Below the pieces are notes generated by a model that saw only the letters and a program-made list of their open reading frames with translations, made no database searches and was not told where the DNA came from. Of a DNA stretch of 25,666 bases, positions 1-25,666 are shown piece after piece. Position 1 is the first letter of the stretch, and every line of letters begins with the position of its first letter. The position numbers were made by a program, and so were the translations under genes. The DNA comes from a candidate division WOR-3 bacterium (lineage in GTDB: Bacteria; Hydrothermota; Hydrothermia; LBFQ01; DSFT01), in NCBI GenBank assembly GCA_965649115.1, contig CBFGJN010000023.1, positions 1-25,666 of the forward strand, given 5' to 3'.

Positions 1-112
1 GGGCGAAGCCCCCCATAACCGAAGATTGGGCATTTTTAAGCCGAAGGCTTATTCATAGGGTGGGTGGGAAAAATAAGAAATAATGATATTTTCAGAATTA
101 CTAGACAAGGCA
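1..112 (+). mobile_element. MITE-like repeat, right half (cut by window edge)
   Basis: GGGCGAAGCCC hairpin, TAAGCCGAAGGCTTA hairpin and AGGGTGGGTGGGAAAA, ending AATTACTAGACAAGGCA at 112; followed by 9 bp (GGATTGCTT) and the next copy. Confidence 0.85.
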
Positions 113-121
113 GGATTGCTT

Positions 122-327
122 TGCTTTGTCCAATAAATAATGTTAAGTCCCTGATAATCAATAACCTATGAAAATTTTAAGAAAATTGTAGATTTTACGG
201 GGGGTTTTAATGGGGGGCTCCGCCCCCCATAACCGAAATATGGGCATTTTTAAGCCGAAGGCTTATATTTAGGGTGGGCGGGGAAAACATAATAAAATAA
301 ATACTTTCAGAATTATTGGACACAGCA
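122..327 (+). mobile_element. Full-length 206-bp MITE-like element
   Basis: Starts TGCTTTGTCCAATAA and ends TTATTGGACACAGCA (imperfect TIR). Same 206-bp length and module order as the copy at 18539-18744. No ORF. Confidence 0.88.
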
Positions 328-372
328 GCAGGCTTATTGGTGGAAAATTGAAGAAACAAAGTTCTCAATGCC

Positions 373-617
373 GAATTATTAGACACAGAAACTTATAGAA
401 GTTTTAAGAAAATTGTTGATTTATAAGGGGATTTTAAGGGGGCGAAGCTCCTTAAAACAAAAGAGGTGAGTATTTGTAAGCCGAAAGCTTATTATTAGGG
501 TGAATGGGAAAAATAAGAAAAATAAAAACTTTTAGAATTACTGAACACATCAATAATTTCCATAAAGTTTCATAAATTAATGCTTTGTCTAATAAATGAT
601 GTTGTAAAAACACATCA
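373..617 (+). repeat. Degenerate MITE fragments
   Basis: Right-end remnant GAATTATTAGACACAG at 373; internal modules to a decayed end CTGAACACATCA at 552; left end TGCTTTGTCTAATAA at 581; possible collapsed right end AAACACATCA at 617. Confidence 0.7.
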
Positions 618-625
618 AAACTTTT

Positions 626-636
626 TCCTTTAAAAT
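626..636 (+). promoter_or_regulatory. Putative -10 box (CCTT-TAAAAT) of a leaderless/short-leader transcript
   Basis: TAAAAT at 631-636, 11 nt before ATG 648, no SD; the same motif precedes other operon-first genes. Confidence 0.6.
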
Positions 637-647
637 TTTCATTAATT

Positions 648-1340
648 ATGAAAGAAGTACAAATTTTATTTGATAAGCAATATAAGCTTAATGGTAAAAA
701 TCTACCTAAAACTTGGCTTTATGAAAATTATATTGAAAACTTTTATTTAATAAATATAATTAACTCTATAAAACCAAAACTAATACTTGATGCTGGATGT
801 GGAGTTGGTCTAAAACTTGAAAATCTAAGAAATTACAATGTTATTGGATTTGATTATTCGTTTGAAGCCGTAAAAATCTGTAAGAATGATAAATTCAAAG
901 TTGTTCAAGCAAGTATTCACCAAATTCCCTTCAAAAATGAAACATTTGATTTTGTATTTTCTTTTCAAGTTATCCAACATCTCCCAAGTTGGGATTATAT
1001 CAGCTTATCATTTAAGGAAATTTCAAGAGTTTTAAAAAAGAAAGGATATTTCTTAACAATAAATTATAGACTTGGTGGAAGACTAAAAGAAAAATATATG
1101 CCTATTAAAGAAGATGATAAAACATTACATAGATGGGCATTTGATTTTAAAGATTATGAAGAGCTAGCAAAAGAAAATCATTTAGAAGTTATAAAAATTG
1201 GAACAATTTTAAATTTAAAACCAAAGGGTATTGGAAAATTTCCATTTTTAAAGAAATTTTATCAGTTTGCTGATTATCAAATGTTTAAACTTGGTTATAA
1301 GAGTGGCCTTTATTTAGTCGGATTATTTAGAAAGATATAA
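648..1340 (+). CDS. Class I SAM-dependent methyltransferase (Methyltransf_11-like)
   Basis: ILDAGCGVG motif I, GFDYS, IPFKNETFDFV, QVIQH, EISRVLKKKG. Confidence 0.85.
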   Translation: MKEVQILFDKQYKLNGKNLPKTWLYENYIENFYLINIINSIKPKLILDAGCGVGLKLENLRNYNVIGFDYSFEAVKICKNDKFKVVQASIHQIPFKNETFDFVFSFQVIQHLPSWDYISLSFKEISRVLKKKGYFLTINYRLGGRLKEKYMPIKEDDKTLHRWAFDFKDYEELAKENHLEVIKIGTILNLKPKGIGKFPFLKKFYQFADYQMFKLGYKSGLYLVGLFRKI

Positions 1341-1419
1341 AAAAATTTTCTGAAACTTTACTCACCATAATGGATACAGAATAAATTAACTGCAAAATTA
1401 TTAAGGAAAGCTTTGTAGG

Positions 1420-1743
1420 TAAGAAAATAAATAAAGACTTTCAGAATTATTAGACATAGCAAAAATAAATTGCTTTGTCCAAAAATTATTGTTAAGTTAT
1501 TGATTATCAAGGACCTATAAAAATTTTATTAGAATTATTTATTTAAGGGGAGCAAAGCCTCCCATAGCCGAAATAAGGAAATTATAATTTTAGTGTTAAG
1601 ACCTACTTTATTAGATTATGGATTTTATTGGGGGGATCCAAGAAACAAAACCTCTCCCATAGCAAAAGATGGGGATTTATAAGGCGAAGCCTTATATTAA
1701 GGGTGGGTGGGGAAAATAAGAAATAATTATATTTTTAGAACAC
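1420..1743 (+). mobile_element. Tandem MITE remnants with a right end-9 bp-left end junction
   Basis: TAGACATAGCA (ends 1461), AAAATAAAT, then TGCTTTGTCC (1471); IHF-type site 1493-1505; TAAGGCGAAGCCTTA and GGGTGGGTGGGG near 1680-1712. Confidence 0.8.
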
Positions 1744-3881: not shown

Positions 3882-3919
3882 GTTAATTGAAATTTTAAGG
3901 TATCAACGCTCAGTGTATC

Positions 3920-4130
3920 TGCTGTGTATAATAATTCTAAAAATACAATTATTTCTATGTTTTCCCACCCACCCCGAAAATAAGGCGGAGCCTTATAAGT
4001 ACCCCATCTTTTGCCATCAGGGGGCAGAGCCCCCCAATTAAACCCCTCAATTTTCGTAAGTAGATGTGCTGTGTCTAATAACTCTGAAATTATTTTTTTC
4101 CACCCACTCTATTTTCATTAGGGGGCTATT
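3920..4130 (-). mobile_element. Two tandem partial MITE copies
   Basis: Right ends TGCTGTGTATAATAATTCT (3920) and TGCTGTGTCTAATAACTCT (4067); TTTCCCACCCACCC, TAAGGCGGAGCCTTA, GGGGGCAGAGCCCCC. Confidence 0.8.
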
Positions 4131-4154: not shown

Positions 4155-6389
4155 CTACCAAACGAAAAATTCCTCCCTGTCAAATCTCTTAAATCCATAA
4201 TCTAGGTCATAAAAATTATTCAAATTTTCAAAACTAATCCTTGGAAATGGTTCTAAATCAAATGAAACAAAGTCCTTTGGAATTGATAATAAATAATTGT
4301 AAAAGCTTTGCCTTAATCCCAAAAATTTTTTATATCTTTCTCTAAAATCCTTAATTTTCAAAATTTCCAAAAATTCTTCATAAACATTCTTTGCTTCCTC
4401 ATCAACTTCAACAAAAACATCAATAAAATTTGGAATTTCTTTAATAATTTTAAATTCTTTTATTTTTTTAAAATCAAAGCACTTCAAACCTTTCAAAACT
4501 TCACTATCTAAATTCTTTCTTTTTATTACATCCTTATAAAATTCATCAATCATATTGTAAAATTCTCTCTCCTCAATAAACTTCATATCTTTTAGTAATT
4601 TTTCACTAATTTCCGTTAAAACAGAACCATAAATTATTGAAGATAAAATTCTATTTTCTCTTATTATTTTGAATATATAAACATCTGATAATTCCCTTTT
4701 AAAATTTCTATTACATCTTCCACAAACTTGAACAATACTATCAAATGGTCCTAAATCTCTATAAGCAACTTCAAAATCCAAATCAACACCTGCTTCAACA
4801 ACTTGTGTAGAAACCAAAATTATCTTCTCATTATTTTTTAAATCATTTTTAATTTTTTCTATTCTTTCCTTCCTATGCTTTGGAACGATGTTTGTAGATA
4901 AATAGAATATCTTAAAATTTTTTATTTCTTTTCTTAATTCTTTATACAATTCAACTGAACTTCTAATAGTATTCAAAACAATAAGGTGAGAATTATGTTT
5001 TTCTAAATTCTCCAATAAAAAATCCCTTAAATTTTCCAAACTATTAATTTCAAGTTTATTAACAATTCTTGTTCTATTTAAAATGTACTTTGATTTATTT
5101 GTTAAAATTTCAAAGCAATTGTCAAAAATAACAGGTTTTGTAGCAGTTGAAATAATGACATAACAACCCATTTTTTCAACAAGAACATTTAAAACATTCT
5201 TAATCAAATCCCAATATTTAACATCTATATTTTGAACTTCATCAAGAATGATAATTGAGCCTGCTATATTATGAAACTTTTTTATAAAGCTATTTTTATA
5301 AGCAATAATTGAATATAAAAGCTGAACAAATGTAGTAATTATTATTTCACTATTCCAAGAGGAAATAAGCATAAGACTTTCTTCAACACTCTTTTCTTCA
5401 TCTGTTTTGTATTCAATTTCAGAAAGATGATGATGTTTTAAAAGATATTCACTTTTATATTTTTCATAATCAGAAATTTCACTTTTTAAGACATTCTCAA
5501 AAACTTCATAAGTTTGCTCAATAATGCTTAAAAATGGTAAAGAATAAATAATTCTGGGTTTATATTTTCTATTTAATTTTTCTCTTATTTTTAGTGCTAA
5601 GGATAAATTTATAAGTGTTTTTCCAAGACCAGTTGGAGCATTAACAGAAATAATTTTTGGAATTTCTTTCAAATTTTCAAAATTTTTTAAAATTTCTTCA
5701 TAAAGTTCATTTCTTATATTATTTTCCTTAAAATGCTTTTTTCTATATTCATCAATAATATTTGAATTTATATGTCTTCTTCTTCTGAAATCTAAATTAA
5801 TAGCTGATTTCTTATCACAATCTATCAAAAGTGAAAATGTGTATGTAAGCTTAAAGTAATTTTCAATGTTTTCATTATTTTCATATTCGTAATTTAGTTT
5901 TCTTAATTGCCTTAAAACGATGTTATTTTTATCTGAAAAATCTAATTTTAAAAATTCAGTTATATCAAAATTTAACTCGCCTGAAATAACATCTTTATTC
6001 TTTTTTAAGTCTTCAATTTGCTCCTTCAAAACAGTATCCTCATAATTAAAATTACTTAAATCACCATGATGATGCCTTATTGCCAAATAACCGATAAGTG
6101 ATAGATTTTCCAATTTCTCCCTAATAAGCCAATAGGCACAAAATAAAGCAGAAATTAAACTATGTTTTGTTAAATTACTTCTCTGCCCATTTTTTAAATA
6201 GTTTTGAAAGAATGTTGTGTATTTTCCAAAATCATGAGATTTTCCAACAATTTCAAAAAATTTTTCATTTAAATCTAATTTTATGAATTCTTTTTGCTCT
6301 TTATAAATTTTCTTCATCCAACTTCCTACTTCATTCAAATGTTCAATTAATTTTTTGTTTGGATGAGAATAGAATTTCATTTCATCCAT
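4155..6389 (-). CDS. cas3: CRISPR-associated helicase/nuclease Cas3 (HD + SF2 helicase)
   Basis: SHP..L..HL, HDFGK, HHHG, DCDK HD motifs; APTGLGKT, LDEVQ, STAT, STQVVEAGVDLDF, QVCGRCNR. Confidence 0.95.
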   Translation of the reverse strand: MDEMKFYSHPNKKLIEHLNEVGSWMKKIYKEQKEFIKLDLNEKFFEIVGKSHDFGKYTTFFQNYLKNGQRSNLTKHSLISALFCAYWLIREKLENLSLIGYLAIRHHHGDLSNFNYEDTVLKEQIEDLKKNKDVISGELNFDITEFLKLDFSDKNNIVLRQLRKLNYEYENNENIENYFKLTYTFSLLIDCDKKSAINLDFRRRRHINSNIIDEYRKKHFKENNIRNELYEEILKNFENLKEIPKIISVNAPTGLGKTLINLSLALKIREKLNRKYKPRIIYSLPFLSIIEQTYEVFENVLKSEISDYEKYKSEYLLKHHHLSEIEYKTDEEKSVEESLMLISSWNSEIIITTFVQLLYSIIAYKNSFIKKFHNIAGSIIILDEVQNIDVKYWDLIKNVLNVLVEKMGCYVIISTATKPVIFDNCFEILTNKSKYILNRTRIVNKLEINSLENLRDFLLENLEKHNSHLIVLNTIRSSVELYKELRKEIKNFKIFYLSTNIVPKHRKERIEKIKNDLKNNEKIILVSTQVVEAGVDLDFEVAYRDLGPFDSIVQVCGRCNRNFKRELSDVYIFKIIRENRILSSIIYGSVLTEISEKLLKDMKFIEEREFYNMIDEFYKDVIKRKNLDSEVLKGLKCFDFKKIKEFKIIKEIPNFIDVFVEVDEEAKNVYEEFLEILKIKDFRERYKKFLGLRQSFYNYLLSIPKDFVSFDLEPFPRISFENLNNFYDLDYGFKRFDREEFFVW

Positions 6390-7144
6390 AAAATAAATTT
6401 ATTTTCACATTTTATTGCTTCAATCTCTTGTTTCAATTTTATAGGTTTTCCAAGTGGATTAACAATAAAATCATTTGTTCTTTTAATTTTTCTTATGTTT
6501 CCATCCATTAAAAAATCAACTGGCATCTTGTCTAAAATGAGAAAATCATTTTCAGAAATATCAATATAATCATAATAATCGTATGGAATTACTGAATGAA
6601 TAATATCGGTTTTTTCTTTAATTTCTTCAAACTTTTTTGGATTTTCAATAAATGCTAAAAATTCACTAATTCCAAGATATGGAGCGTACTTTATTTGATT
6701 ACTTTCTAAAATTTTCCAAAGCTCTTCTTCAATTTTAGAATTATTTTTAAAATTCAAATATATTCTATAACTTAAAAATTCATGATTTATTGGCATTAAA
6801 ACTTCTATTGATGTAGGATAATCTTCAACACCTCTTAAAAATTTTCTTAAAAATTTTTCAATACTTAAATCACCTTTCTTCGTTATACCTAAATCATCTT
6901 TCTCCGTTCGGTAATACTTTACCGTAAAAATGGATTTCTTAATAGGAGTTAGAATTTCAATTGAAATATCTAAATTTTCACTTGAAAAAATTTCATAATA
7001 ACTATCTCTTTCCATTCCAAGAATTCCCGCAATAATACCAATAATTGTTGTTCTTGGTGGAAAGTAATAACTTAATGAACTTGCATTTGTATAGAAAGGT
7101 CTAAAATGAGCAAATTTACCCTTAATTTCAAATGAAATTAACAT
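6377..7144 (-). CDS. cas5: Type I-B Cas5
   Basis: N-terminal GKFAHFR..SLSYYFPPRTTIIGIIAGILG and PYLGISEF; lies between cas7 and cas3. Confidence 0.92.
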   Translation of the reverse strand: MLISFEIKGKFAHFRPFYTNASSLSYYFPPRTTIIGIIAGILGMERDSYYEIFSSENLDISIEILTPIKKSIFTVKYYRTEKDDLGITKKGDLSIEKFLRKFLRGVEDYPTSIEVLMPINHEFLSYRIYLNFKNNSKIEEELWKILESNQIKYAPYLGISEFLAFIENPKKFEEIKEKTDIIHSVIPYDYYDYIDISENDFLILDKMPVDFLMDGNIRKIKRTNDFIVNPLGKPIKLKQEIEAIKCENKFILWMK

Positions 7145-8021
7145 TTGGGAACTTCTTTAAATTTTCATCTAAATACGAAACTTCATCACATCTCTTAACA
7201 ATAACTTTTGATATTTTATCTTTTATCTTATCTAAGGCATTCACAAGTTCATTTATATTAATTTTATAATCTTTAATGCTTTCAATAGCTTCCTTCTTAT
7301 CTATGCTTATAAACCTTCTTAAATCGCCTATTAAATAATCATCATTATATTCAATCCTTATATACAGAATTGGCATATGACCAATTTTGCTTCTTGTACT
7401 TGTTTCAAGGTTAATAGCAGGAAAAATTGATTCATCAAACAATTTAACATCATCTTCATTTAAATTTGTTTTTAAAGCCCAATACTTATTTATTCTTCCA
7501 TAAAACGCTATTAAAGAGTACTTTAACCTCCAATCCTTACCAATAGAACCACCTTCCTTTTTCTCACCTGCAAAATGACTTGTAATTGAAGGACTATCTA
7601 CAAACTCAACCATATTTAATGAATAACCCCAACTAAACTGAATAGGTCCTGTAAATTGAATTGATCTACCTTTATTTTTCTTATCAGAACCTCTAATTGG
7701 AATAGTAGCTCCGAAGAATTTTATATCTATGAATAATTTTGTAAGGTCATCTGGTGAAGGTTTCTTACCTAAGCTTTTTTCTACTTGTTCATATCTTTCA
7801 GTAGCATCAAGATAACTTCCATCATCTGCTTTCCTTATAAAAATATCCATATTTTTATGATGATATAAATAATCCCTTATGAATCTTTTTAGTCTAACAT
7901 CACTAACAAGATTGGTCATAGTTGAATAATCTATTCTTGGCTTATTCTCGTTATCAGGGTCTCCATTCGGATTACAAAGTTTTGCCTCATATAAAAGTAA
8001 AATCTCGCTATTCTTTATCAT
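7128..8021 (-). CDS. cas7: Type I-B Cas7 (Csh2/Cas7b)
   Basis: NPNGDPD..PRID, VSDVRLKRFIRDY, IDIKFFGAT, FTGPIQF, TRSKIG. Confidence 0.93.
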   Translation of the reverse strand: MIKNSEILLLYEAKLCNPNGDPDNENKPRIDYSTMTNLVSDVRLKRFIRDYLYHHKNMDIFIRKADDGSYLDATERYEQVEKSLGKKPSPDDLTKLFIDIKFFGATIPIRGSDKKNKGRSIQFTGPIQFSWGYSLNMVEFVDSPSITSHFAGEKKEGGSIGKDWRLKYSLIAFYGRINKYWALKTNLNEDDVKLFDESIFPAINLETSTRSKIGHMPILYIRIEYNDDYLIGDLRRFISIDKKEAIESIKDYKININELVNALDKIKDKISKVIVKRCDEVSYLDENLKKFPNVNFI

Positions 8022-8412
8022 CTTTTGAACCTCCTTCTTTTAGAATTTTATATGTTTCAAAAGCATAACCTGAAAGGATATAATATGTATTTTCATAACT
8101 TTTTAAATTCCAATTCTTAAAGTTTTTGTCAAACAACTGCTTACTTAATGAATAAATTACTTCATAATTTCCATATATTTCAAGTTGTTTCATTTTTTCA
8201 AGAACTTCATTATATAAATTTATTAACTTTTCTTTATCCATACCATTGAAATTTACTTTTTCAAGAATTGGCTTATATTTATAAGAATTATATTGAATTG
8301 AGCCTATTTTACCAATAACAACTCCAAGAAGGAAGAGCGCAGTTTCCATTTCGCCAAAAGAACAAGTTTTTATATACTCTATATAATCCTTTTCTAAAAC
8401 ATCTATATTCAT
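8008..8412 (-). CDS. cas11b: Putative Cas11b small subunit translated from an internal start in cas8b (134 aa)
   Basis: AGGAGGT at 8428-8422, 9 nt before an in-frame ATG at 8412; matches known internal translation of Cas11 from type I large-subunit genes. Confidence 0.72.
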   Translation of the reverse strand: MNIDVLEKDYIEYIKTCSFGEMETALFLLGVVIGKIGSIQYNSYKYKPILEKVNFNGMDKEKLINLYNEVLEKMKQLEIYGNYEVIYSLSKQLFDKNFKNWNLKSYENTYYILSGYAFETYKILKEGGSKDDKE

Positions 8413-9743
8413 ATCACTTCTACCTCCTTTTAAAAACTTTAAGAGTTGATGCGTCTTTAAGATGTACTCCACCTCATCAAATTTTCTTGATAACTGATAG
8501 GCATTATTTTCATAATAAATAGCCCGAAATCCAATTGTAAATTCTTTAATTAAATTACTAATTTCAATAAAACTTTCATTAAATAATATAGCAAAAATAA
8601 ACTTACGATTTTCTGAATATCAACAAATTCAACAAGATAATAGAAATCACTTAAATTTTTTATAAGATAACCTTCATCATTTATAAAATTCCCAAAACTT
8701 CTTCTAATATCAATAATTTTTTGTTTAATTTTTTCAATCCTACCATTTGGAATATCCTTTATTAAAGCAAAAACTTTAAATTGTTGTTTGTTTTGTTCAT
8801 AGAACAAATAATTTAGTAAAACAAAATTATCATAATCTTCAAATTCCCTATATTCTTCAATCTTTTTTTCAAATTCCATATTAAAAAATTCAAATGGATT
8901 TTTATAAAATTTTATATATTCTGACCATTTTTCAAGTTTATTCTTATTTAATTTAGGTTCTTTTATAAATTCTGGAATTATTAAATAGTTAATACTTCCA
9001 ACTTTTGAACTAAATTTGTTTAAAATAAAACTTTGTCCCTTTATTAAAATTTTATAGCAATTTTCACATAAAGCGAAATTTCCTTGCCAATCATTTGAAA
9101 TGTTTTGAGAAAAACCCACTTTATCATTTATATAGATTTTCATTTTTAATCTTGAAAAATCAGTAAAAAATTTTTTTGTTTCTTTTGAACAAAAATGACA
9201 AATAATTTTACCCTTTTGAGATTTATCTTCCAAAACTTTCCTTTCAATTAATTTCAAATAGCTTTCATTATTATGAATATCTTCACCATCAATTTTTACC
9301 GCCCAAAATGCAATCTCTTTCTCTTTAATGTTATTTTGCTTTAAGTAATTTTCAATAGTTTCCTTATAATTATCTTTTAATAAATCTCCATCATAAAAAA
9401 TTTTTTCAACTTCTAAAATTTTCTGCTTTAATTCCATATCTTCTATCTCATCTTTAAGAGATGTCCAACGTGAATAGCTTTTGTTCTTTTCACCATAAAT
9501 CCTTTTTTTATCACCAAAAACGACAAATGGTTGTTTTTGACGACCAGTTAGGCTCATCTTTACAAAGTTATATTTATATTCATCACCTTGTGAGTACTCT
9601 TTTGATAATAAAGAAATTTTTTCATTTTTTGTATCAAAGTTTATTTCTATTATATATTTTTCTTTTCCATCAATTTCTTCAACAAATGAACTAACTACTT
9701 CTATATCATAATTTTTACCAATTTGGTATAATCCTTTTATCAT
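8008..9743 (-). pseudogene. cas8b: Type I-B Cas8b/Csh1 split by one frameshift (about 578 aa if repaired)
   Basis: ORF 9743-8550 has CHFC..LCENC Zn motifs and YLIIP. The second frame is open from about 8618 (FAILFNESFIEISNLIKEF..) into ORF 8472-8008 (FLLGVVIGKIG..Q..KPILEKVNFNGM). One extra base in the A5 run at 8593-8597 would join them. Confidence 0.85.
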
Positions 9744-9759
9744 AAAGTTTTAAAATTTT

Positions 9760-9784
9760 AAGGGGGGTTGACTTTTAAAAAATG
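9760..9784 (+). repeat. 25-bp direct repeat, copy 1
   Basis: AAGGGGGGTTGACTTTTAAAAAATG, identical to 12487-12511. Confidence 0.9.
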
Positions 9785-9931
9785 CTGTGTCTAGTAATTC
9801 TGGAAGCATAATTATTTCTTATTTTTCCCACCCGCCCTAAAATCAAGCCTTTGGCTTAAAAAAAAACCCCATCTTTTGCCCCCCACAAAAACTATAATTT
9901 TCTTAAAATTTTATTAGTTATTGATTATCAA
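9783..9931 (-). mobile_element. MITE copy lacking its left end, upstream of cas8b
   Basis: TGCTGTGTCTAGTAATTCTG end, TTTCCCACCCGCCCT, AAGCCTTTGGCTT, TTATTGATTATCAA. Confidence 0.82.
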
Positions 9932-9934
9932 TTA

Positions 9935-10735
9935 TTACAGCAAAAACAATTGTATCTTTTTTAAGATCTCATCATAGGTTATTTTTTGTCCTTTTTTGGT
10001 TACTTTTAGCTTCTTAAGTATTACTCCTCGTATATAGTTTAGATATTTTTCTTTGAAAATTATAAATCCATTTTCTAGTTTACCGAAATTCTCTTCAAAA
10101 ATGTGTAAAAGATTTTTATATTCGTTCTTCTTACTTTCTTTCACTCTTGAACTAGCAATTTTATTTTTTATCTCATCAACATCAATAACTAAATATGGTA
10201 CTTCCACAACGATATCCACATGGGTTTGTTGTTTTTTTGTAAATCTTCTCTCTGATGCTTCCCTTCTATATGACACTTTTTTAACTTGAATCGCAATTTT
10301 TATTTTGTTCAAGTCTAAAACTGCATCTATTCCCATCATATCTAACTCTGATGTGGATATTAACTTCTCATCAAATAATGCATTCCACAAATATTGAAAA
10401 TGAAATTGAGTTAAAATAGACATCCAAATCCTATATAGTCTTGCTTTGAATCCTTCCTCTACAAATTGTAATGAACAGCCATAAAAATACTTCTTTATAA
10501 AATCATAAATGTATGGATTTAGCTTCTCACTCCAATAAATTTTAAAGATCTCATCGTAATCTTTAAAATCAGTTGTGTTCCAATAATACCTGTAATATAT
10601 TTCAAGGGGTAATAAATCTTTTGGAAGATCTTGTTCTATGGTTTTAATACCTCTTAGATGTGCATATTTCTGTATGTTTATACCCTCGAGAAATATTTCA
10701 AATTTATTTAAATCTTCTTTCCAACTTCTTGACAT
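9935..10735 (-). CDS. TaqI-family type II restriction endonuclease (likely TCGA)
   Basis: IKTIEQDLP, FIKKYFYGCS..FVEEGFKARLYR, SILTQFHF..WNA, GIDA, IQVKK.SYR, LENGFIIF, all recognised from memory as R.TaqI-like segments. Confidence 0.88.
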   Translation of the reverse strand: MSRSWKEDLNKFEIFLEGINIQKYAHLRGIKTIEQDLPKDLLPLEIYYRYYWNTTDFKDYDEIFKIYWSEKLNPYIYDFIKKYFYGCSLQFVEEGFKARLYRIWMSILTQFHFQYLWNALFDEKLISTSELDMMGIDAVLDLNKIKIAIQVKKVSYRREASERRFTKKQQTHVDIVVEVPYLVIDVDEIKNKIASSRVKESKKNEYKNLLHIFEENFGKLENGFIIFKEKYLNYIRGVILKKLKVTKKGQKITYDEILKKIQLFLL

Positions 10736-12063
10736 AGCGACATTTTTTCCAAATTTTTTAATTCATCCTTTGTGGGCAATGGTAATAACTTTAACTGCGT
10801 TATACTAAAATGGTAAGTTATATCCCTGAAAACATCATTTACATATCTTTTGATAATCTCAGAGTTAAGAAATTTGACAACTTCTTCGTCAGTAAGATCA
10901 AACTTCGTATTAGTTAGCGTATGTTTCCTCAAAAGGTGATATACATCTCCCATCCAAGGATATGCTTTGTAATCATAAGCTGCTCCAATTTGCCTATTTC
11001 CTCTGAAACCTAAACTAACAACAATATGTGGTTTATTAAAGAATTTTCTTAATTTTGTCTTTTTATCAGCTTCAATCCAATATCCAGTAGTAGATTTATA
11101 TACAATTGCTCCAATTTTTAAATTTTTTCCGTTTAAAATTGGGAGCAAATTTTTATCTTCTATATGATCTTTGGATTTTATGACATTTGGGTTATGCTTT
11201 ATTTCTGGAGTTCGGGGGGAAATTCTTATATCGTAAATATCTCCGAGACGAAAACTACAAAGTTCATCTACTTTTTTACTAAATTCGGTAAAAAATAAAA
11301 TAATATCACCATTCCAACTATCATTTTGAGTTAGTAATTTCGGTTTCCCATTATCATAATCATATAGAAGCAACTTCCCCCTTTCAATTGCTGATTTTGT
11401 AAATTTCAACACTACCGTAGTAACATCTGCCTCGGGCTTAAAAACACTAGATCCCATATAAATGATTTCTGTTTTTCCATTCTTTGCTAAAAATTCACGC
11501 AATTTTTTGAATTCATCTAAAATCATAAATGTGGCAGGAACAATAAATATAAGTTGGCCTTTTTCGTTTAGTAATTTTATAGATTTCTCTATAAACGCAC
11601 CATAAACATTGTATTTTCCATGCCAAGTTTCATATATCTTCTTGTATTTTTCCTTAGTTTTATTATCAACTTTTATGGTGTAATGTTCTGATAGACTTGG
11701 TATGCCGTATGGTGGATTACCTAAAATTATATCAAAGAGTTTGTCTGTTTCCCACAGAAGATAGTCTTTATTGATAATCTCTATCGCTAGGGCAAGATCA
11801 TTCTTGCGAAGATATTCTGCTATTTCTTTGTTGATTTCTACTCCAATCCTGACAATTGCATTATCAAAAATGTGCTTTTTGTTCTTTTTTACTCCTAATA
11901 AAAATTGACACATTCCGCAGGCTGGTTCAAGAATGTGTATATCGGATGCTTTACCTAATCTCTCATCCTCTATCAAATCAACCATAAAATCAACAAGCCA
12001 CTCTGGGGTAAAAAATATTCCTAGGTCTTTTTTCACCTGCTTAATTTTCTCATTCATCATCAA
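10708..12063 (-). CDS. M.TaqI-like N6-adenine DNA methyltransferase (gamma class)
   Basis: FFTP..VDFMV, ILEPACG, GVEI, LLWE..FDIILGNPPYG, TWHGKYNVYGAFIEK, IVPAT, LREFLA..GKT; annotated start is TTG, with ATGs at 12060/12057 as alternatives. Confidence 0.92.
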   Translation of the reverse strand: MMMNEKIKQVKKDLGIFFTPEWLVDFMVDLIEDERLGKASDIHILEPACGMCQFLLGVKKNKKHIFDNAIVRIGVEINKEIAEYLRKNDLALAIEIINKDYLLWETDKLFDIILGNPPYGIPSLSEHYTIKVDNKTKEKYKKIYETWHGKYNVYGAFIEKSIKLLNEKGQLIFIVPATFMILDEFKKLREFLAKNGKTEIIYMGSSVFKPEADVTTVVLKFTKSAIERGKLLLYDYDNGKPKLLTQNDSWNGDIILFFTEFSKKVDELCSFRLGDIYDIRISPRTPEIKHNPNVIKSKDHIEDKNLLPILNGKNLKIGAIVYKSTTGYWIEADKKTKLRKFFNKPHIVVSLGFRGNRQIGAAYDYKAYPWMGDVYHLLRKHTLTNTKFDLTDEEVVKFLNSEIIKRYVNDVFRDITYHFSITQLKLLPLPTKDELKNLEKMSLCQEVGKKI

Positions 12064-12303: not shown

Positions 12304-12331
12304 AGTTCTGAAAGTTTAAAGGATAGAAAGT

Positions 12332-12420
12332 TGCTTTGTCTAGTAATTCTAAAAGTCCTTTTTTTCTATGTTTTTCCCACCCTAATAATAAGCCTACCGC
12401 TTTAAAATAGCCATTTTTAT
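12332..12420 (-). repeat. Degenerate MITE right half
   Basis: TGCTTTGTCTAGTAATTCT, TTTCCCACCCT, TAAGCCTACCGCTTTA. Confidence 0.72.
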
Positions 12421-12486
12421 GTCTTGTGGTCTTTACCCTCATAAAATCAATAGTTTCAAATAGATTTTTATTGAGCGAAGCATTAA

Positions 12487-17427: not shown

Positions 17428-18501
17428 CTATAATTTGACAGGCATTATAAGGTACTTTAAATTATCTTCTTCTGACTTTATCAAGACAGGCTGACTTTCT
17501 GAATAAATATAAATATAAATATCATCTTCCATTTCTTTTACAATCTCATAAAATCTTTTATAATGAAAATAAATTTCAACATTATCTCCATTATACTTTC
17601 CAAGTAAATTTGATTTAAATTCTTCTCCATCATCTGACATAGCAAAAATTGTTATAGATTTATCTATTTTTATTCCAAATGTTTCTGGATTTAAAGGTGA
17701 CATTGCTTTAAGCTTTGTTTCAATTTCATTTTTATGAACATATAATTCATTAGCAATTCCCTCAGGAAATATCGCATTATAGTCAGGATAAGGTCCAGAA
17801 ATTAGTCTTATATTCATAAAACCATTAGTAAATCCAATTACCATATAGTCCTCATTAAATCCAACCTCAATATTTTCATATTCAATTTCATCAAGGATTT
17901 TATAAACATCTTTTGGAATGATTGCTTGAAATTCTCCAAAATTTTCATCAAAATTTTCAGTATATAAACCTAATCTATAACTATCGGAAGCCACAAAATT
18001 TGCTAATTCCCCTTTATTATCCCACAAAATCCCCGATAAAAATAATCTATTTTCATCTTCACCAGTACAAAATTCAACCTTTGATAAACAATTTATAAGT
18101 CTTTTTCTTGAAATTCTGAACATTTTTAGATTTTCTCTCAAATCATTAACTTCAATATAATCATCTGGATTTAAAGTAGGAATTTTATAATAGGTTTCAT
18201 CAGAAGATATTTTTAGAGCATTATTAACCTCTTCAAAACTTATAATTGACGCTGAAGGAATATTCTTTAAAATTGAAATAAGTGTTGAGCCATTTACAAG
18301 AACTTTACCATCTTCACTATCATAAACATCTATTGAGACATTATATTGAATATCAGTGTTACAGGATGTAATATAAACACTATTTCCAGAAACTTCTAAA
18401 AGAACTGATTTAAGAATATCCAAGGATTTCCCTTTTGGTAAAATTTTATTTATAATAGGGATAACTTTTTCAATTTCTCTTTTTTCTATGGAAAATTTCA
18501 T
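17428..18501 (-). CDS. dnaN: DNA polymerase III beta sliding clamp
   Basis: 357 aa; [30 protein letters not shown]-terminal YLIMPVKL. Confidence 0.92.
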
Positions 18502-18538
18502 AGTTTTGAAATTTTAAAGGATTTAAAATTTTTCTTTG

Positions 18539-18744
18539 TGCTGTGTCTAGTAATTCTGGAATTATTGATTTTTCTTATTTTTCCCACCCACCCTAATAAT
18601 AAGCCTTCGGCTTATAAATGCCCATTTTTAGGCTTCGGGGGGCTTCGCCCCCCCCATTAGACCCCCCATTAAATCTATAACTTCTTTAAAATTTTTATAA
18701 ACTATTGATAATCAAGGACTTATCATTATTTATTGGACAAAGCA
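18539..18744 (-). mobile_element. Full-length 206-bp MITE-like element with a perfect 9-bp target-site duplication
   Basis: TGCTGTGTCTAGTAA ... TTATTGGACAAAGCA, flanked by TTTTCTTTG at 18530-18538 and 18745-18753. Confidence 0.92.
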
Positions 18745-18753
18745 TTTTCTTTG

Positions 18754-18809
18754 TGCTGTGTCTAATAATTCTAAATTTCGGCTGTGGGAGCGTAGCTTTT
18801 TCCACCCGT
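18754..18809 (-). repeat. More decayed MITE right-end remnant
   Basis: TGCTGTGTCTAATAATTCT directly after the 9-bp TSD, then scrambled internal pieces. Confidence 0.75.
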
Positions 18810-18844
18810 TCATAAATTATTGACAATCAATTTTTTTCTGTAAT

Positions 18845-19680
18845 TTAAAGAGGTAAAAATGGATAAATTTTTGTTTTCGTTTTCAAAAGATAGTAAATTG
18901 GAGTAATTAAAGCTACAAAATAGTGATACCAAACAATTGGAGAAAAAATCAACATCTTCAGATAATTTAAGAAAAGGCAATAAAATTAAAATAATTAAGA
19001 ATTGAAAAAATTGAATAGTTTTTTTCACCGAAGCCGAAATGATATTTTGGATTAAGTTGAGCATATTTTATAAAATGAAAGAAACTTTCATCTATCCAAA
19101 TATAGAAATTCTTACCAATTAAAATAATAACAAGAGCACAAAAAATTATACAAAAAAACAAATTTTTTAATTTTCTTTTTAAAATCAACCAATACACAAG
19201 GATTATAGGAATTGCCTTTAAAACGATAGCAAGACTTAGAAAAAATCCACTTAGAAGAGAATTTTTTCTAAAATAGTAAGCAAGAACTGGTAGTGAAAAA
19301 AATGGAATGATATTAATTTGACCTACCATAATACTATCCAAAATTGGAGGTAAAAGTAATATAACACTATTTAAAGCTTCCTCAAAATCTTCAAATGTGA
19401 ATAAAGATATTATTAACATTATTGATGAAAATAATAGAACAAAAAAAGCCAATTGCCTGCTTGTCAAGTGATTACAAGCTGGTGATATAATATAAGCAAA
19501 TGTGGGTGGGTATCTATAATATGGAGAGCATTCATTCAATAACTTGTTTTCATTTAAACACTTACAAGCCTTATATATATTATTAAAATCAGAAGTCTTA
19601 CCCTCAACCGCCCTATATGTTCCAATAATAATTGAAAAAATTAGGCAAATTACAATAAAAATAAACTTTACTTTTGACAT
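18845..19680 (-). pseudogene. GT87/DUF2029-family membrane glycosyltransferase with a frameshifted 3' part
   Basis: DF..Y, YRYPPTFA, GQIN, LAIVLK.IP. The conserved SPIVWYHYF segment lies in an unlisted frame (MLIFSPIVWYHYFVAL..PL*, stop 18845-18847). Confidence 0.8.
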
Positions 19681-25439: not shown

Positions 25440-25666
25440 GCCCCAAAAGCAGAAGATAGGGCTTTTATAAGACGAAAGGCCTAATTATAGGGTGGGAGAA
25501 AGATAATAAAATAAATGGTTTTAGAATTACTAGACACAGCACACGGAAATTGCTTTGTCCAATAATTATTGCTAACTTATTGATTGTCAATAACTTATAA
25601 AAATTTTAAGAAAATTATAGTTTTTATGGGGGGTTTTTAATGGGGGCTTCGCCCCCATAGCCGAAA
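25440..25666 (+). mobile_element. Tandem MITE copies with a right end-9 bp-left end junction (second copy cut by window edge)
   Basis: TAGACACAGCA (ends 25541), CACGGAAAT, then TGCTTTGTCC (25551); IHF-type site 25573-25585; ATGGGGGCTTCGCCCCCAT. Confidence 0.85.

Follow-up and report, generated by a model that had tools for sequence, protein, structure and literature searches.

The window analysed here is the whole of contig CBFGJN010000023.1 (25,666 bp; C23 below), one of the 99 contigs of the 1.85-Mb assembly (27.6% G+C) of a candidate division WOR-3 bacterium, and the sequencing runs that contain its sequence are hot-spring metagenomes. Upstream of dnaN and at other genes it carries copies of a ~205-bp non-coding MITE (miniature inverted-repeat transposable element) with target-site duplications (TSDs) of 9 bp, and several of these copies are arranged head to tail. 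We consider it likely that such arrays are stacks anchored on promoters, built by repeated one-sided insertion of the MITE, which would be moved by a transposase of the IS5 family. An earlier note on this DNA had proposed that repeated insertion at a promoter-defined 9-bp target pushes older copies outward; the proposal proved largely right, and none of the refuting conditions that it had set for itself, each of which was checked, went against it.

The dnaN Stack and the Junctions of the Window

Upstream of dnaN an intact copy of the MITE points its TGCTGTGTCTAG end towards the gene and its TTGGACAAAGCA end away from it. From the gene outward, the locus reads:

17428-18501 (-): dnaN (DNA polymerase III beta clamp), the gene of the targeted promoter; Pfam PF00712 and PF02767 above cut-off
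18508-18519 (-): promoter box of the host, CTTTAAAATTTC; it lies 6 nt upstream of the ATG of dnaN, and the element end is 19 nt away
18530-18538 (+): promoter-side TSD copy TTTTCTTTG, a 9-mer open to renewed insertion
18539-18744 (+): intact copy of the MITE, covering model 1-205 (nhmmer: 195 bits, E = 1e-57)
18745-18753 (+): second TSD copy TTTTCTTTG, the 9-bp spacer between the intact and the decayed copy
18754-18840 (+): older decayed copy; nhmmer match to model 1-22 (18754-18775), E = 8e-4

PF02768 matched dnaN weakly, under its cut-off (20.7 bits vs. 27). The identical 9-mer on both sides of the intact copy, the decay of the distal copy and the ~215-bp period had all been described in the earlier note and were all recovered: the distal copy has a model-level match only over its first ~22 bases, and the measured period is ~214-215 bp (205-206 plus 9). 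Past 18775, reading by eye suggests remnants of the GC-rich core and of the ...TTATTGACAATCAAT region, extending to ~18836, with the far inverted repeat apparently lost.

Short metagenome contigs from four hot-spring runs that fall on 18200-19100 break in the repeat, and none spans the whole dnaN stack; two of them cover the dnaN junction, running from the end of the intact copy across the spacer and on into the decayed one. The box is conserved at dnaN in four other species of the genus, regardless of whether an element is there. In G003 and G004 the box is present, there is no element and the upstream gene is another one. In G001 the box is the variant CTTTAAACTTTC, with no element match and a different upstream sequence, and the dnaN contig of G002 begins 3 bases into an element end that stands 19 nt away from its box.

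The four right end-N9-left end junctions reported for the window all read as described:

Junction 1: CTAGACAAGGCA, then the 9-bp spacer GGATTGCTT at 113-121 (+), then TGCTTTGTCC
Junction 2: TTAGACATAGCA, then the 9-bp spacer AAAATAAAT at 1462-1470 (+), then TGCTTTGTCC
Junction 3 (dnaN): TTGGACAAAGCA, then TTTTCTTTG at 18745-18753 (reverse complement CAAAGAAAA), then TGCTGTGTCTAA
Junction 4: CTAGACACAGCA, then the 9-bp spacer CACGGAAAT at 25542-25550 (+), then TGCTTTGTCC

A Multicopy MITE With Spacers of TSD Length

We built a MITE profile from 114 near-full copies and searched the whole assembly with nhmmer, which returned 723 matches, 232 of them full-length. The 205-bp consensus begins TGCTGTGTCTAGTAATTC... 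and ends ...TTATTGGACAAAGCA, its inverted ends being TGCTGTGTCTAG... and ...TTGGACAAAGCA. In a set of 211 full copies, 79 start with TGCTG and 38 with TGCTT (117 together), and other variants include TGTTT in 30 and TGCCT in 25; 178 end in AAGCA. A perfect 9-bp TSD is present at 95 of the 211, all of which have enough flank for the comparison, and the number rises to 109 when one mismatch is allowed; shuffled flank pairs matched perfectly in 17 of 5,000 cases. Duplications of 8 bp were found at 10 copies, those of 7, 10 or 11 bp at none. The copies in the window contain no open reading frame (ORF) of at least 80 aa, and only 7 of the 723 matches have their midpoint in a called ORF. The repeat is a MITE: it has terminal inverted repeats and a TSD of fixed length, it is small, non-coding and multicopy, and the host carries an autonomous element with the same ends (see below).

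For the genome-wide analysis of junctions we took neighbours on the same strand with both abutting ends complete and a gap of at most 30 bp (n = 108). The spacer is 9 bp in 93 of these, far beyond chance, so that the constant spacer length claimed from the window extends to the genome. Eight others have 8 bp, and the remaining seven 7, 16 (three times), 18, 24 and 27 bp. Opposite-strand pairs with both facing ends intact number only 3. At 40 of 73 testable junctions, the spacer is identical to the 9-mer on the promoter side of the proximal copy; at 10 of the 40, the 9-mer beyond the distal copy is the same too, and all three 9-mers agree. In both respects, a spacer of TSD length (93/108) and its identity with the flanking TSD (40/73), the junctions are those expected of double insertion.

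Some stacks have a more complex history. At least four dimers carry an outer duplication of their own (C1 59266, C3 37424, C4 18773 and C64 8173), which means that adjacent copies move together. Six to seven of the spacer words are found again at other loci (expected: 0.32), and several of them are the duplication of a copy elsewhere (GTAGAAAAT at C27/C39; GATGCTTTT at C24/C11). At the loci with recurring words the flanking copies are usually unlike. For example, two dimers with the spacer AGAGTTAG(T) were considered as copies of one dimer, and this was rejected on their identities (a-a 0.795, b-b 0.706). Composite moves from long same-word stacks, or recombination or conversion between stacks, are candidate explanations for the recurring words. 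The suggestion that an array would record insertion history thus holds only roughly, with 33 of 73 spacers foreign to their site, some dimers moved as units and words that recur.

A separate observation concerns a 1,426-bp unit at C11 31359-32784, which lies between a partial and a full element copy, has a perfect 9-bp TSD (TATATCTTT) and is in register with a box. Its cargo is a 246-aa ORF and a small ORF, tentatively ribbon-helix-helix-like to judge by its sequence. It appears that host genes were mobilised here by the element ends, as a composite transposon.

[quoted passage not shown]

The gene-side flank of the TGCTGTGTCTAG end contains a box, CTTTAAAATTTT on the gene strand, which has 386 exact occurrences in the genome against 7 expected. 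In most cases, 3-8 nt separate the end of the box from an ATG. Of 45 tRNA genes, 32 have the box 4-17 nt in front of them, which makes it a transcription signal (a promoter element) rather than one for translation. The box is probably -10-like, the leaders being very short, and its position 3-8 nt before most starts suggests that transcripts are mostly leaderless or near-leaderless.

The distance between box and element is sharply defined. Among 335 terminal TGCTGTGTCTAG ends, 130 stand 19 nt and 46 stand 18 nt from the box (176 together), and a further 59 form a second register at 10-13 nt, offset by 8 bp and in the same orientation. Distal-type terminal ends stand 19 nt from the box in only 3 of 175 cases. 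These counts bear out the promoter-defined target that the earlier note had postulated. An element end in register was found at 166 of the 372 exact boxes outside elements, and in intergenic regions between same-direction genes one orientation outnumbers the other 254 to 26. If the two registers were mixed in a stack, spacers of 17 bp would result; a few of 16 bp and of 18 bp occur.

The autonomous insertion sequence (IS) with the same ends occupies the same position: 10 of its 13 free TGCCTTGTCC ends were scored as 18-19 nt from a box (11 by eye). Its relatives in other metagenomes, L011 and L012, also lie 19 nt from a box, one of them upstream of tuf, where a Shine-Dalgarno sequence is found between box and ATG. 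In the sister species, for which a 391-kb sample of G002 served as a replicate, the spacer is 9 bp at 7 of 9 junctions, 8 of 17 full copies have a TSD, and 13 of 25 terminal ends stand at 18-19 nt.

Position relative to the box is also associated with stacking. Of the young copies that lead a stack, 35 of 40 are in box register; among young solo copies, 23 of 38 are. Stacks are present at 35 of 58 box sites vs. 5 of 20 off-box sites (Fisher p = 0.009) and are thus rarer off the box. These figures point to the box, and not to the end of a resident copy, as the anchor.

Each element also holds a box copy of its own, directed outward at the distal end and away from the targeted gene (window 18684-18695; model 145-156); 103 such internal copies lie within one mismatch of the box. 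Pairs at "-69" that looked like nested insertions at the internal box were rejected, being overlapping both-strand matches of one partly palindromic copy, and no nested insertion was found genome-wide.

A Gradient of Completeness Away From the Promoter

Promoter-side copies are the more complete ones. Profile scores within junction pairs favour the promoter-side copy 69 times vs. 24 (p = 3e-6). Of 93 junctions, the promoter-side copy is full-length in 73 and the distal copy in 41, and in 79 pairs off contig ends the promoter-side model span is the longer in 58 vs. 20. The share of full-length copies falls with rank from the box, from 84% (n = 89) at rank 1 to 28% (n = 88) at rank 2 and 12% (n = 25) at rank 3, and rank 1 outscores rank 2 in 78 stacks vs. 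10. A gradient from the promoter, as the earlier note expected, therefore exists. Most of it is truncation of the distal copy; the polarity in identity to consensus is weak (0.873 on the promoter side vs. 0.863 on the distal side, over the aligned part).

A Parent Insertion Sequence of the IS5 Family

The parent was traced at the contig ends. Sixteen contig ends stop ~100-127 bases into a sequence beginning TGCCTTGTCCAATAATTCC, and ten stop inside a sequence beginning TGCTTTGTCCAATAAATAATG, which enters an ORF start MGKVNWQEYNKELVRRGEIW.... Both IS ends are MITE-like inverted repeats, one of them followed by the start of the transposase ORF. The 56-aa transposase N-terminus found at contig ends is 92% identical to P0001, a full-length, 300-aa protein from another metagenome, outside this assembly. 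P0001 matches NF033579 (NCBIfam, IS5 family) with 245.5 bits (cut-off 140), PF01609 with 88.9 bits and PF13737 with 73.5 bits, and it aligns with IS903B-type transposases over residues 4-290 of 300 at ~26% identity. The MITE end and the IS903B inverted repeat GGCTTTGTTGAATAAATC (plasmid record CP128783.1) are alike at 14 of 18 bases. A DDE transposase of the IS4/IS5 type, IS903-type inverted repeats and a 9-bp TSD, the last scored on MITE copies only, place the parent in the IS903 group of the IS5 family; the IS relative in L012 has no target duplication. Taken together, these sequences identify the parent as a multi-copy, IS903-like IS of the IS5 family, collapsed by the assembler.

Searches of the genome with the Pfam models PF01609, PF13737, PF00872, PF12762, PF00665 and PF05598 were all empty. 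The transposase escaped them because the IS is collapsed and its ends lie at contig ends. PF01609 had no match in four genomes of the genus, clustering of the sequence beside truncated ends found no IS, an exact 34-base pattern had no match in public metagenome contigs, and a transposase search of the genome contig collection found no relative. Two candidates for an IS within the assembly were rejected. The unit at C11 31359-32784, the sole match when we looked for IR-like ends 700-2500 bp apart with a duplication, is the cargo-carrying composite described above, and long repeats found by self-BLAST are paralogous genes.

Proposed Mechanism and Alternative Explanations

In the mechanism that we favour, an IS903-like DDE transposase would move the MITE in trans and generate the 9-bp TSDs. 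The transposase, or something promoter-bound that it reads, would set the single orientation and place the TGCTGTGTCTAG end 18-19 nt (in the minor register 10-13 nt) upstream of CTTTAAAATTTT. Each insertion would duplicate the 9-mer, and its box-side copy would keep the distance to the box and stay a good target. A second insertion would then give box-N10-T-new-T-old-T, with spacers of TSD length and the newest copy beside the promoter. Older copies would decay by deletion, and the stacks would later be scrambled as adjacent copies move as composites and, probably, by recombination between stacks.

Several results weigh against this reading or limit it. The spacer is not the local duplication at 33 of 73 junctions, and 101 full copies have at least 3 mismatches between their two flanking 9-mers; thus, simple re-insertion cannot explain every junction. 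In the first stack of the window (1-640), the most intact copy (122-327) is not the promoter-proximal one. The polarity in identity alone amounts to 46 vs. 33 (sign test p = 0.18, Wilcoxon p = 0.012), and the rank analysis demands an intact end at rank 1, which favours rank 1. The gradient is mostly distal truncation and could reflect survivorship or selection rather than age. Moreover, collapse of two intact neighbours by recombination would leave an equal gradient, so that it may not be a pure measure of age, and decay may record age only in part. No complete IS copy is present in this assembly, in which searches with PF01609, PF13737 and PF05598 were empty. Finally, internal box copies were targeted in 0 of 103 cases vs. 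291 of 1,328, so the 12-mer alone is not sufficient.

The regular period, and stacks in which one 9-mer occurs throughout (four times at C5 47713, for example), could suggest that a single insertion was amplified into a small satellite by unequal crossover, slippage or rolling-circle replication of the 215-bp unit. Such a process should leave neighbours more alike than distant copies, and they are not: adjacent full pairs have a mean identity of 0.842 (n = 32, maximum 0.925), the same as random pairs (0.842, n = 400). Neighbours are therefore not near-identical, as the unequal-crossover alternative named in the earlier note would have them; many stacks have differing spacers, and completeness differs strongly among the copies of one stack. 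Amplification is largely refuted by these data, and we give it the least credence of all the explanations considered. The earlier note had also allowed that right end-N9-left end might be a circle junction, an (IS)2-type junction or a recombination site, with integrated ~215-bp circles bringing a donor-derived spacer. Homologous recombination of a circle with a resident copy would give dimers of this kind, and the 33 foreign spacers and the recurring words (six to seven vs. 0.32 expected), several equal to the duplication of another copy, would fit. Against this, spacers vary between stacks, 40 of 73 are the local promoter-side duplication, the gradient and the one-sided growth follow the promoter, and IS903 is described as mainly a cut-and-paste element. 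No ~215-bp circle was seen either, in data whose short contigs stop at the repeats and could not have revealed one. We regard the circle-junction explanation as improbable.

Only marginally better placed, and still improbable, is targeting by the resident copy, in which the transposase bound to its end would direct a newcomer to the adjoining 9 bp. Transposition that targets the element's own inverted repeats is found in IS30 and IS911. Here, 48 of 95 TSD-perfect copies lie directly before the end of another copy (40 of 78 terminal, 8 of 17 within stacks), five young-led stacks occupy sites without a box in register, and the IS lies 9 bp from MITE ends at C16, C42, C43, C1 and C28. However, solo copies and the IS occupy the 18-19 nt register without any neighbour, stacks are far commoner at box sites (35/58 vs. 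5/20), and growth on the box side only is not predicted for an element with two similar inverted repeats. It could also be that insertion is near random and that the surviving positions are simply those harmless to genes and promoters. The rarity of midpoints in called ORFs (7/723) agrees with this, and the position is plausibly harmless, as duplication of the 9-mer leaves the promoter-side sequence unchanged. On the other hand, selection would lead one to expect a broad spread of distances, not two narrowly defined registers and 130 ends at exactly 19 nt; nor would it account for an orientation bias of 10:1, and the register is repeated by the IS in other metagenomes and in the sister species. 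Selection as the sole cause is thus very unlikely, and we infer that targeting, not selection alone, sets the position, although selection for harmless positions cannot be fully separated from targeting. Promoter-anchored re-insertion accordingly remains our preferred explanation for the stacks.

Relation to Known Systems

Double insertion at a preferred site has been described for the P element, hobo and R1 of Drosophila, where it yields tandems spaced by the TSD, and dimers of bacterial IS are cited in the same work (McGurk & Barbash 2018, PMC5932611). In the portion of that paper on which we draw, the tandems are likewise head-to-tail, with a spacer that is the duplicated target of TSD length and a preference for the best sites. 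Unlike those tandems, the stacks reported here consist of a bacterial MITE, occupy hundreds of loci in a small genome and reach 4-5 units. Furthermore, the target is set by distance to the box and not by the duplicated word, and growth is one-sided.

Insertion in a set orientation and at a constant distance upstream of housekeeping promoters is known from TnGBS, ISLre2 and ISKra4 (Guerillot et al. 2014, PMC3942029). The element described here behaves as TnGBS and ISLre2 do in both orientation and distance, and orientation is tied to a difference between the inverted repeats in those systems, according to the parts of that paper used here. The likeness is one of behaviour only: the transposase of TnGBS and ISLre2 is Mutator-like (p-MULT), a type unrelated to the IS5 family found here, and PF00872 had no match in the genome. 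TnGBS inserts 15-17 bp upstream of the -35 element, by the same parts of that account, whereas the MITE lies 18-19 nt upstream of a -10-like box, so that its duplication would cover roughly the -35 region. MITE stacks are not among the features of TnGBS and ISLre2 described in those parts.

With IS903 and IS903B the element has in common the 9-bp TSD, 14 of 18 bases of the inverted repeats and a transposase that aligns over 4-290 of 300 residues, although protein identity is only ~26%. To our knowledge, neither promoter homing nor a very abundant MITE derivative is a known feature of IS903. In CRISPR arrays and tandem casposon insertions an anchor fixes the insertion point, a short target is duplicated and the newest unit lies beside the anchor. 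The likeness to the stacks is formal, with the box as the leader-like anchor and the 9-mer in the role of the repeat. Yet no Cas1-Cas2 or casposase takes part, and the repeat of the genome's true CRISPR arrays is another one. The short words differ between stacks, the long units all belong to one element family, and the same element is inserted each time, so that only order is recorded, with many stacks scrambled. Our literature search, in which work on WOR-3/Hydrothermota was checked superficially, found no such element in this lineage and no promoter-anchored MITE stacks.

Double insertion as a mechanism and promoter homing as a form of targeting are both known; here they are combined in a transposase family and a host that are new, and on an unusual scale. 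A bolder interpretation, which we hold to be doubtful and offer tentatively, is that an IS5-family transposase evolved promoter homing independently, by reading a promoter-bound factor (the RNA polymerase holoenzyme or another box-binding protein) rather than DNA alone. Along with its MITE, it might have spread to almost half of a thermophile's consensus promoters. The stacks would then be a natural transposon analogue of a polarised, CRISPR-like array arising from ordinary DDE transposition, and they might be co-opted as upstream promoter insulators. Reading of a promoter-bound factor, if true, would explain why element-internal boxes are never targeted.

If the preferred mechanism is correct, promoter homing with base-pair precision would extend to a second transposase family, unrelated to the first, in a hot-spring lineage that is poorly known and on a scale rarely seen (166 of 372 exact boxes). 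The stacks would also be a clear example, from a bacterium, of tandem repeats born from transposons in a way that has been proposed, by repeated insertion at one target, here with a built-in direction of growth. The distance from box to element end offers a ready promoter marker in this lineage, and the transposase is a candidate compact tool for insertion at a fixed offset from a short motif.

Other Element Copies and Neighbouring Genes in the Window

Besides the dnaN stack, the window contains the following copies:

1-112 (-): MITE copy truncated where the contig starts (model 1-113); it is the distal copy at junction 1 and probably continues in C65
122-327 (-): full MITE copy, 198 bits, without matching duplication (TAAGCCTGC vs. 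AAGCAATCC)
388-552 (-): partial copy, model 1-166, nearer to the box at 628-639 of a methyltransferase gene (648-1340)
1410-1461 (-): copy remnant, first ~50 bases only, found as repeat search family D4 with no nhmmer match; distal partner of junction 2
1471-1740 (-): rearranged copy, two overlapping partial matches (model 81-205 and 16-146)
3920-4047 (+): single partial copy, its end 19 nt from the box at 3889-3900
9783-9936 (+): single partial copy, upstream of a cas8b-like gene; 19 nt separate its end from the box at 9752-9763
12332-12471 (+): single partial copy, placed in the second register, with 10 nt between its end and the box at 12310-12321
25441-25541 (-): truncated copy, model 1-104; distal partner of junction 4
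25551-25666 (-): copy truncated where the contig ends (model 90-205); it is the proximal copy at junction 4

By reading, a remnant of the far end of another copy lies at ~592-620. Both ends of the contig (1-121; 25551-25666) stop within element copies. This is common in the assembly, in which 83 of 198 contig ends lie in the MITE and a further 26 in the IS, and the genome is poorly assembled because of these arrays. The junction word at the start of C23, AAGCAATCC, is common to the contig-start copy and the start of C65, and the word of the end junction recurs at C26 10913; C65 and C26 10913 are the probable neighbours of the C23 ends in the genome.

In the window, no Rfam family matched at its gathering score. 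Three occurrences of the methyltransferase gene with its surroundings are present in the genome, at 87-90% identity: that of the window (619-1341), C21 8981-9699 and C46 10367-11085. In the window this gene has element copies on both sides, and the elements may have spread it. The stretches 4155-9743 and 9935-12063 hold a cas3 helicase gene and a cas8b-like (TM1802) gene, which have three to four ORFs between them and could form a type I-B cas operon, and, adjoining it, a TaqI-like restriction-modification pair. There are element copies at the promoters at 9783 and 12332. Elsewhere in the assembly, true CRISPR arrays (repeat GTTTAAATTCCACTAYGTTCAGATGAAAC) end in a common leader-like sequence at the right ends of C1 and C66 and the left ends of C35 and C32, which represents either several arrays or one collapsed locus.

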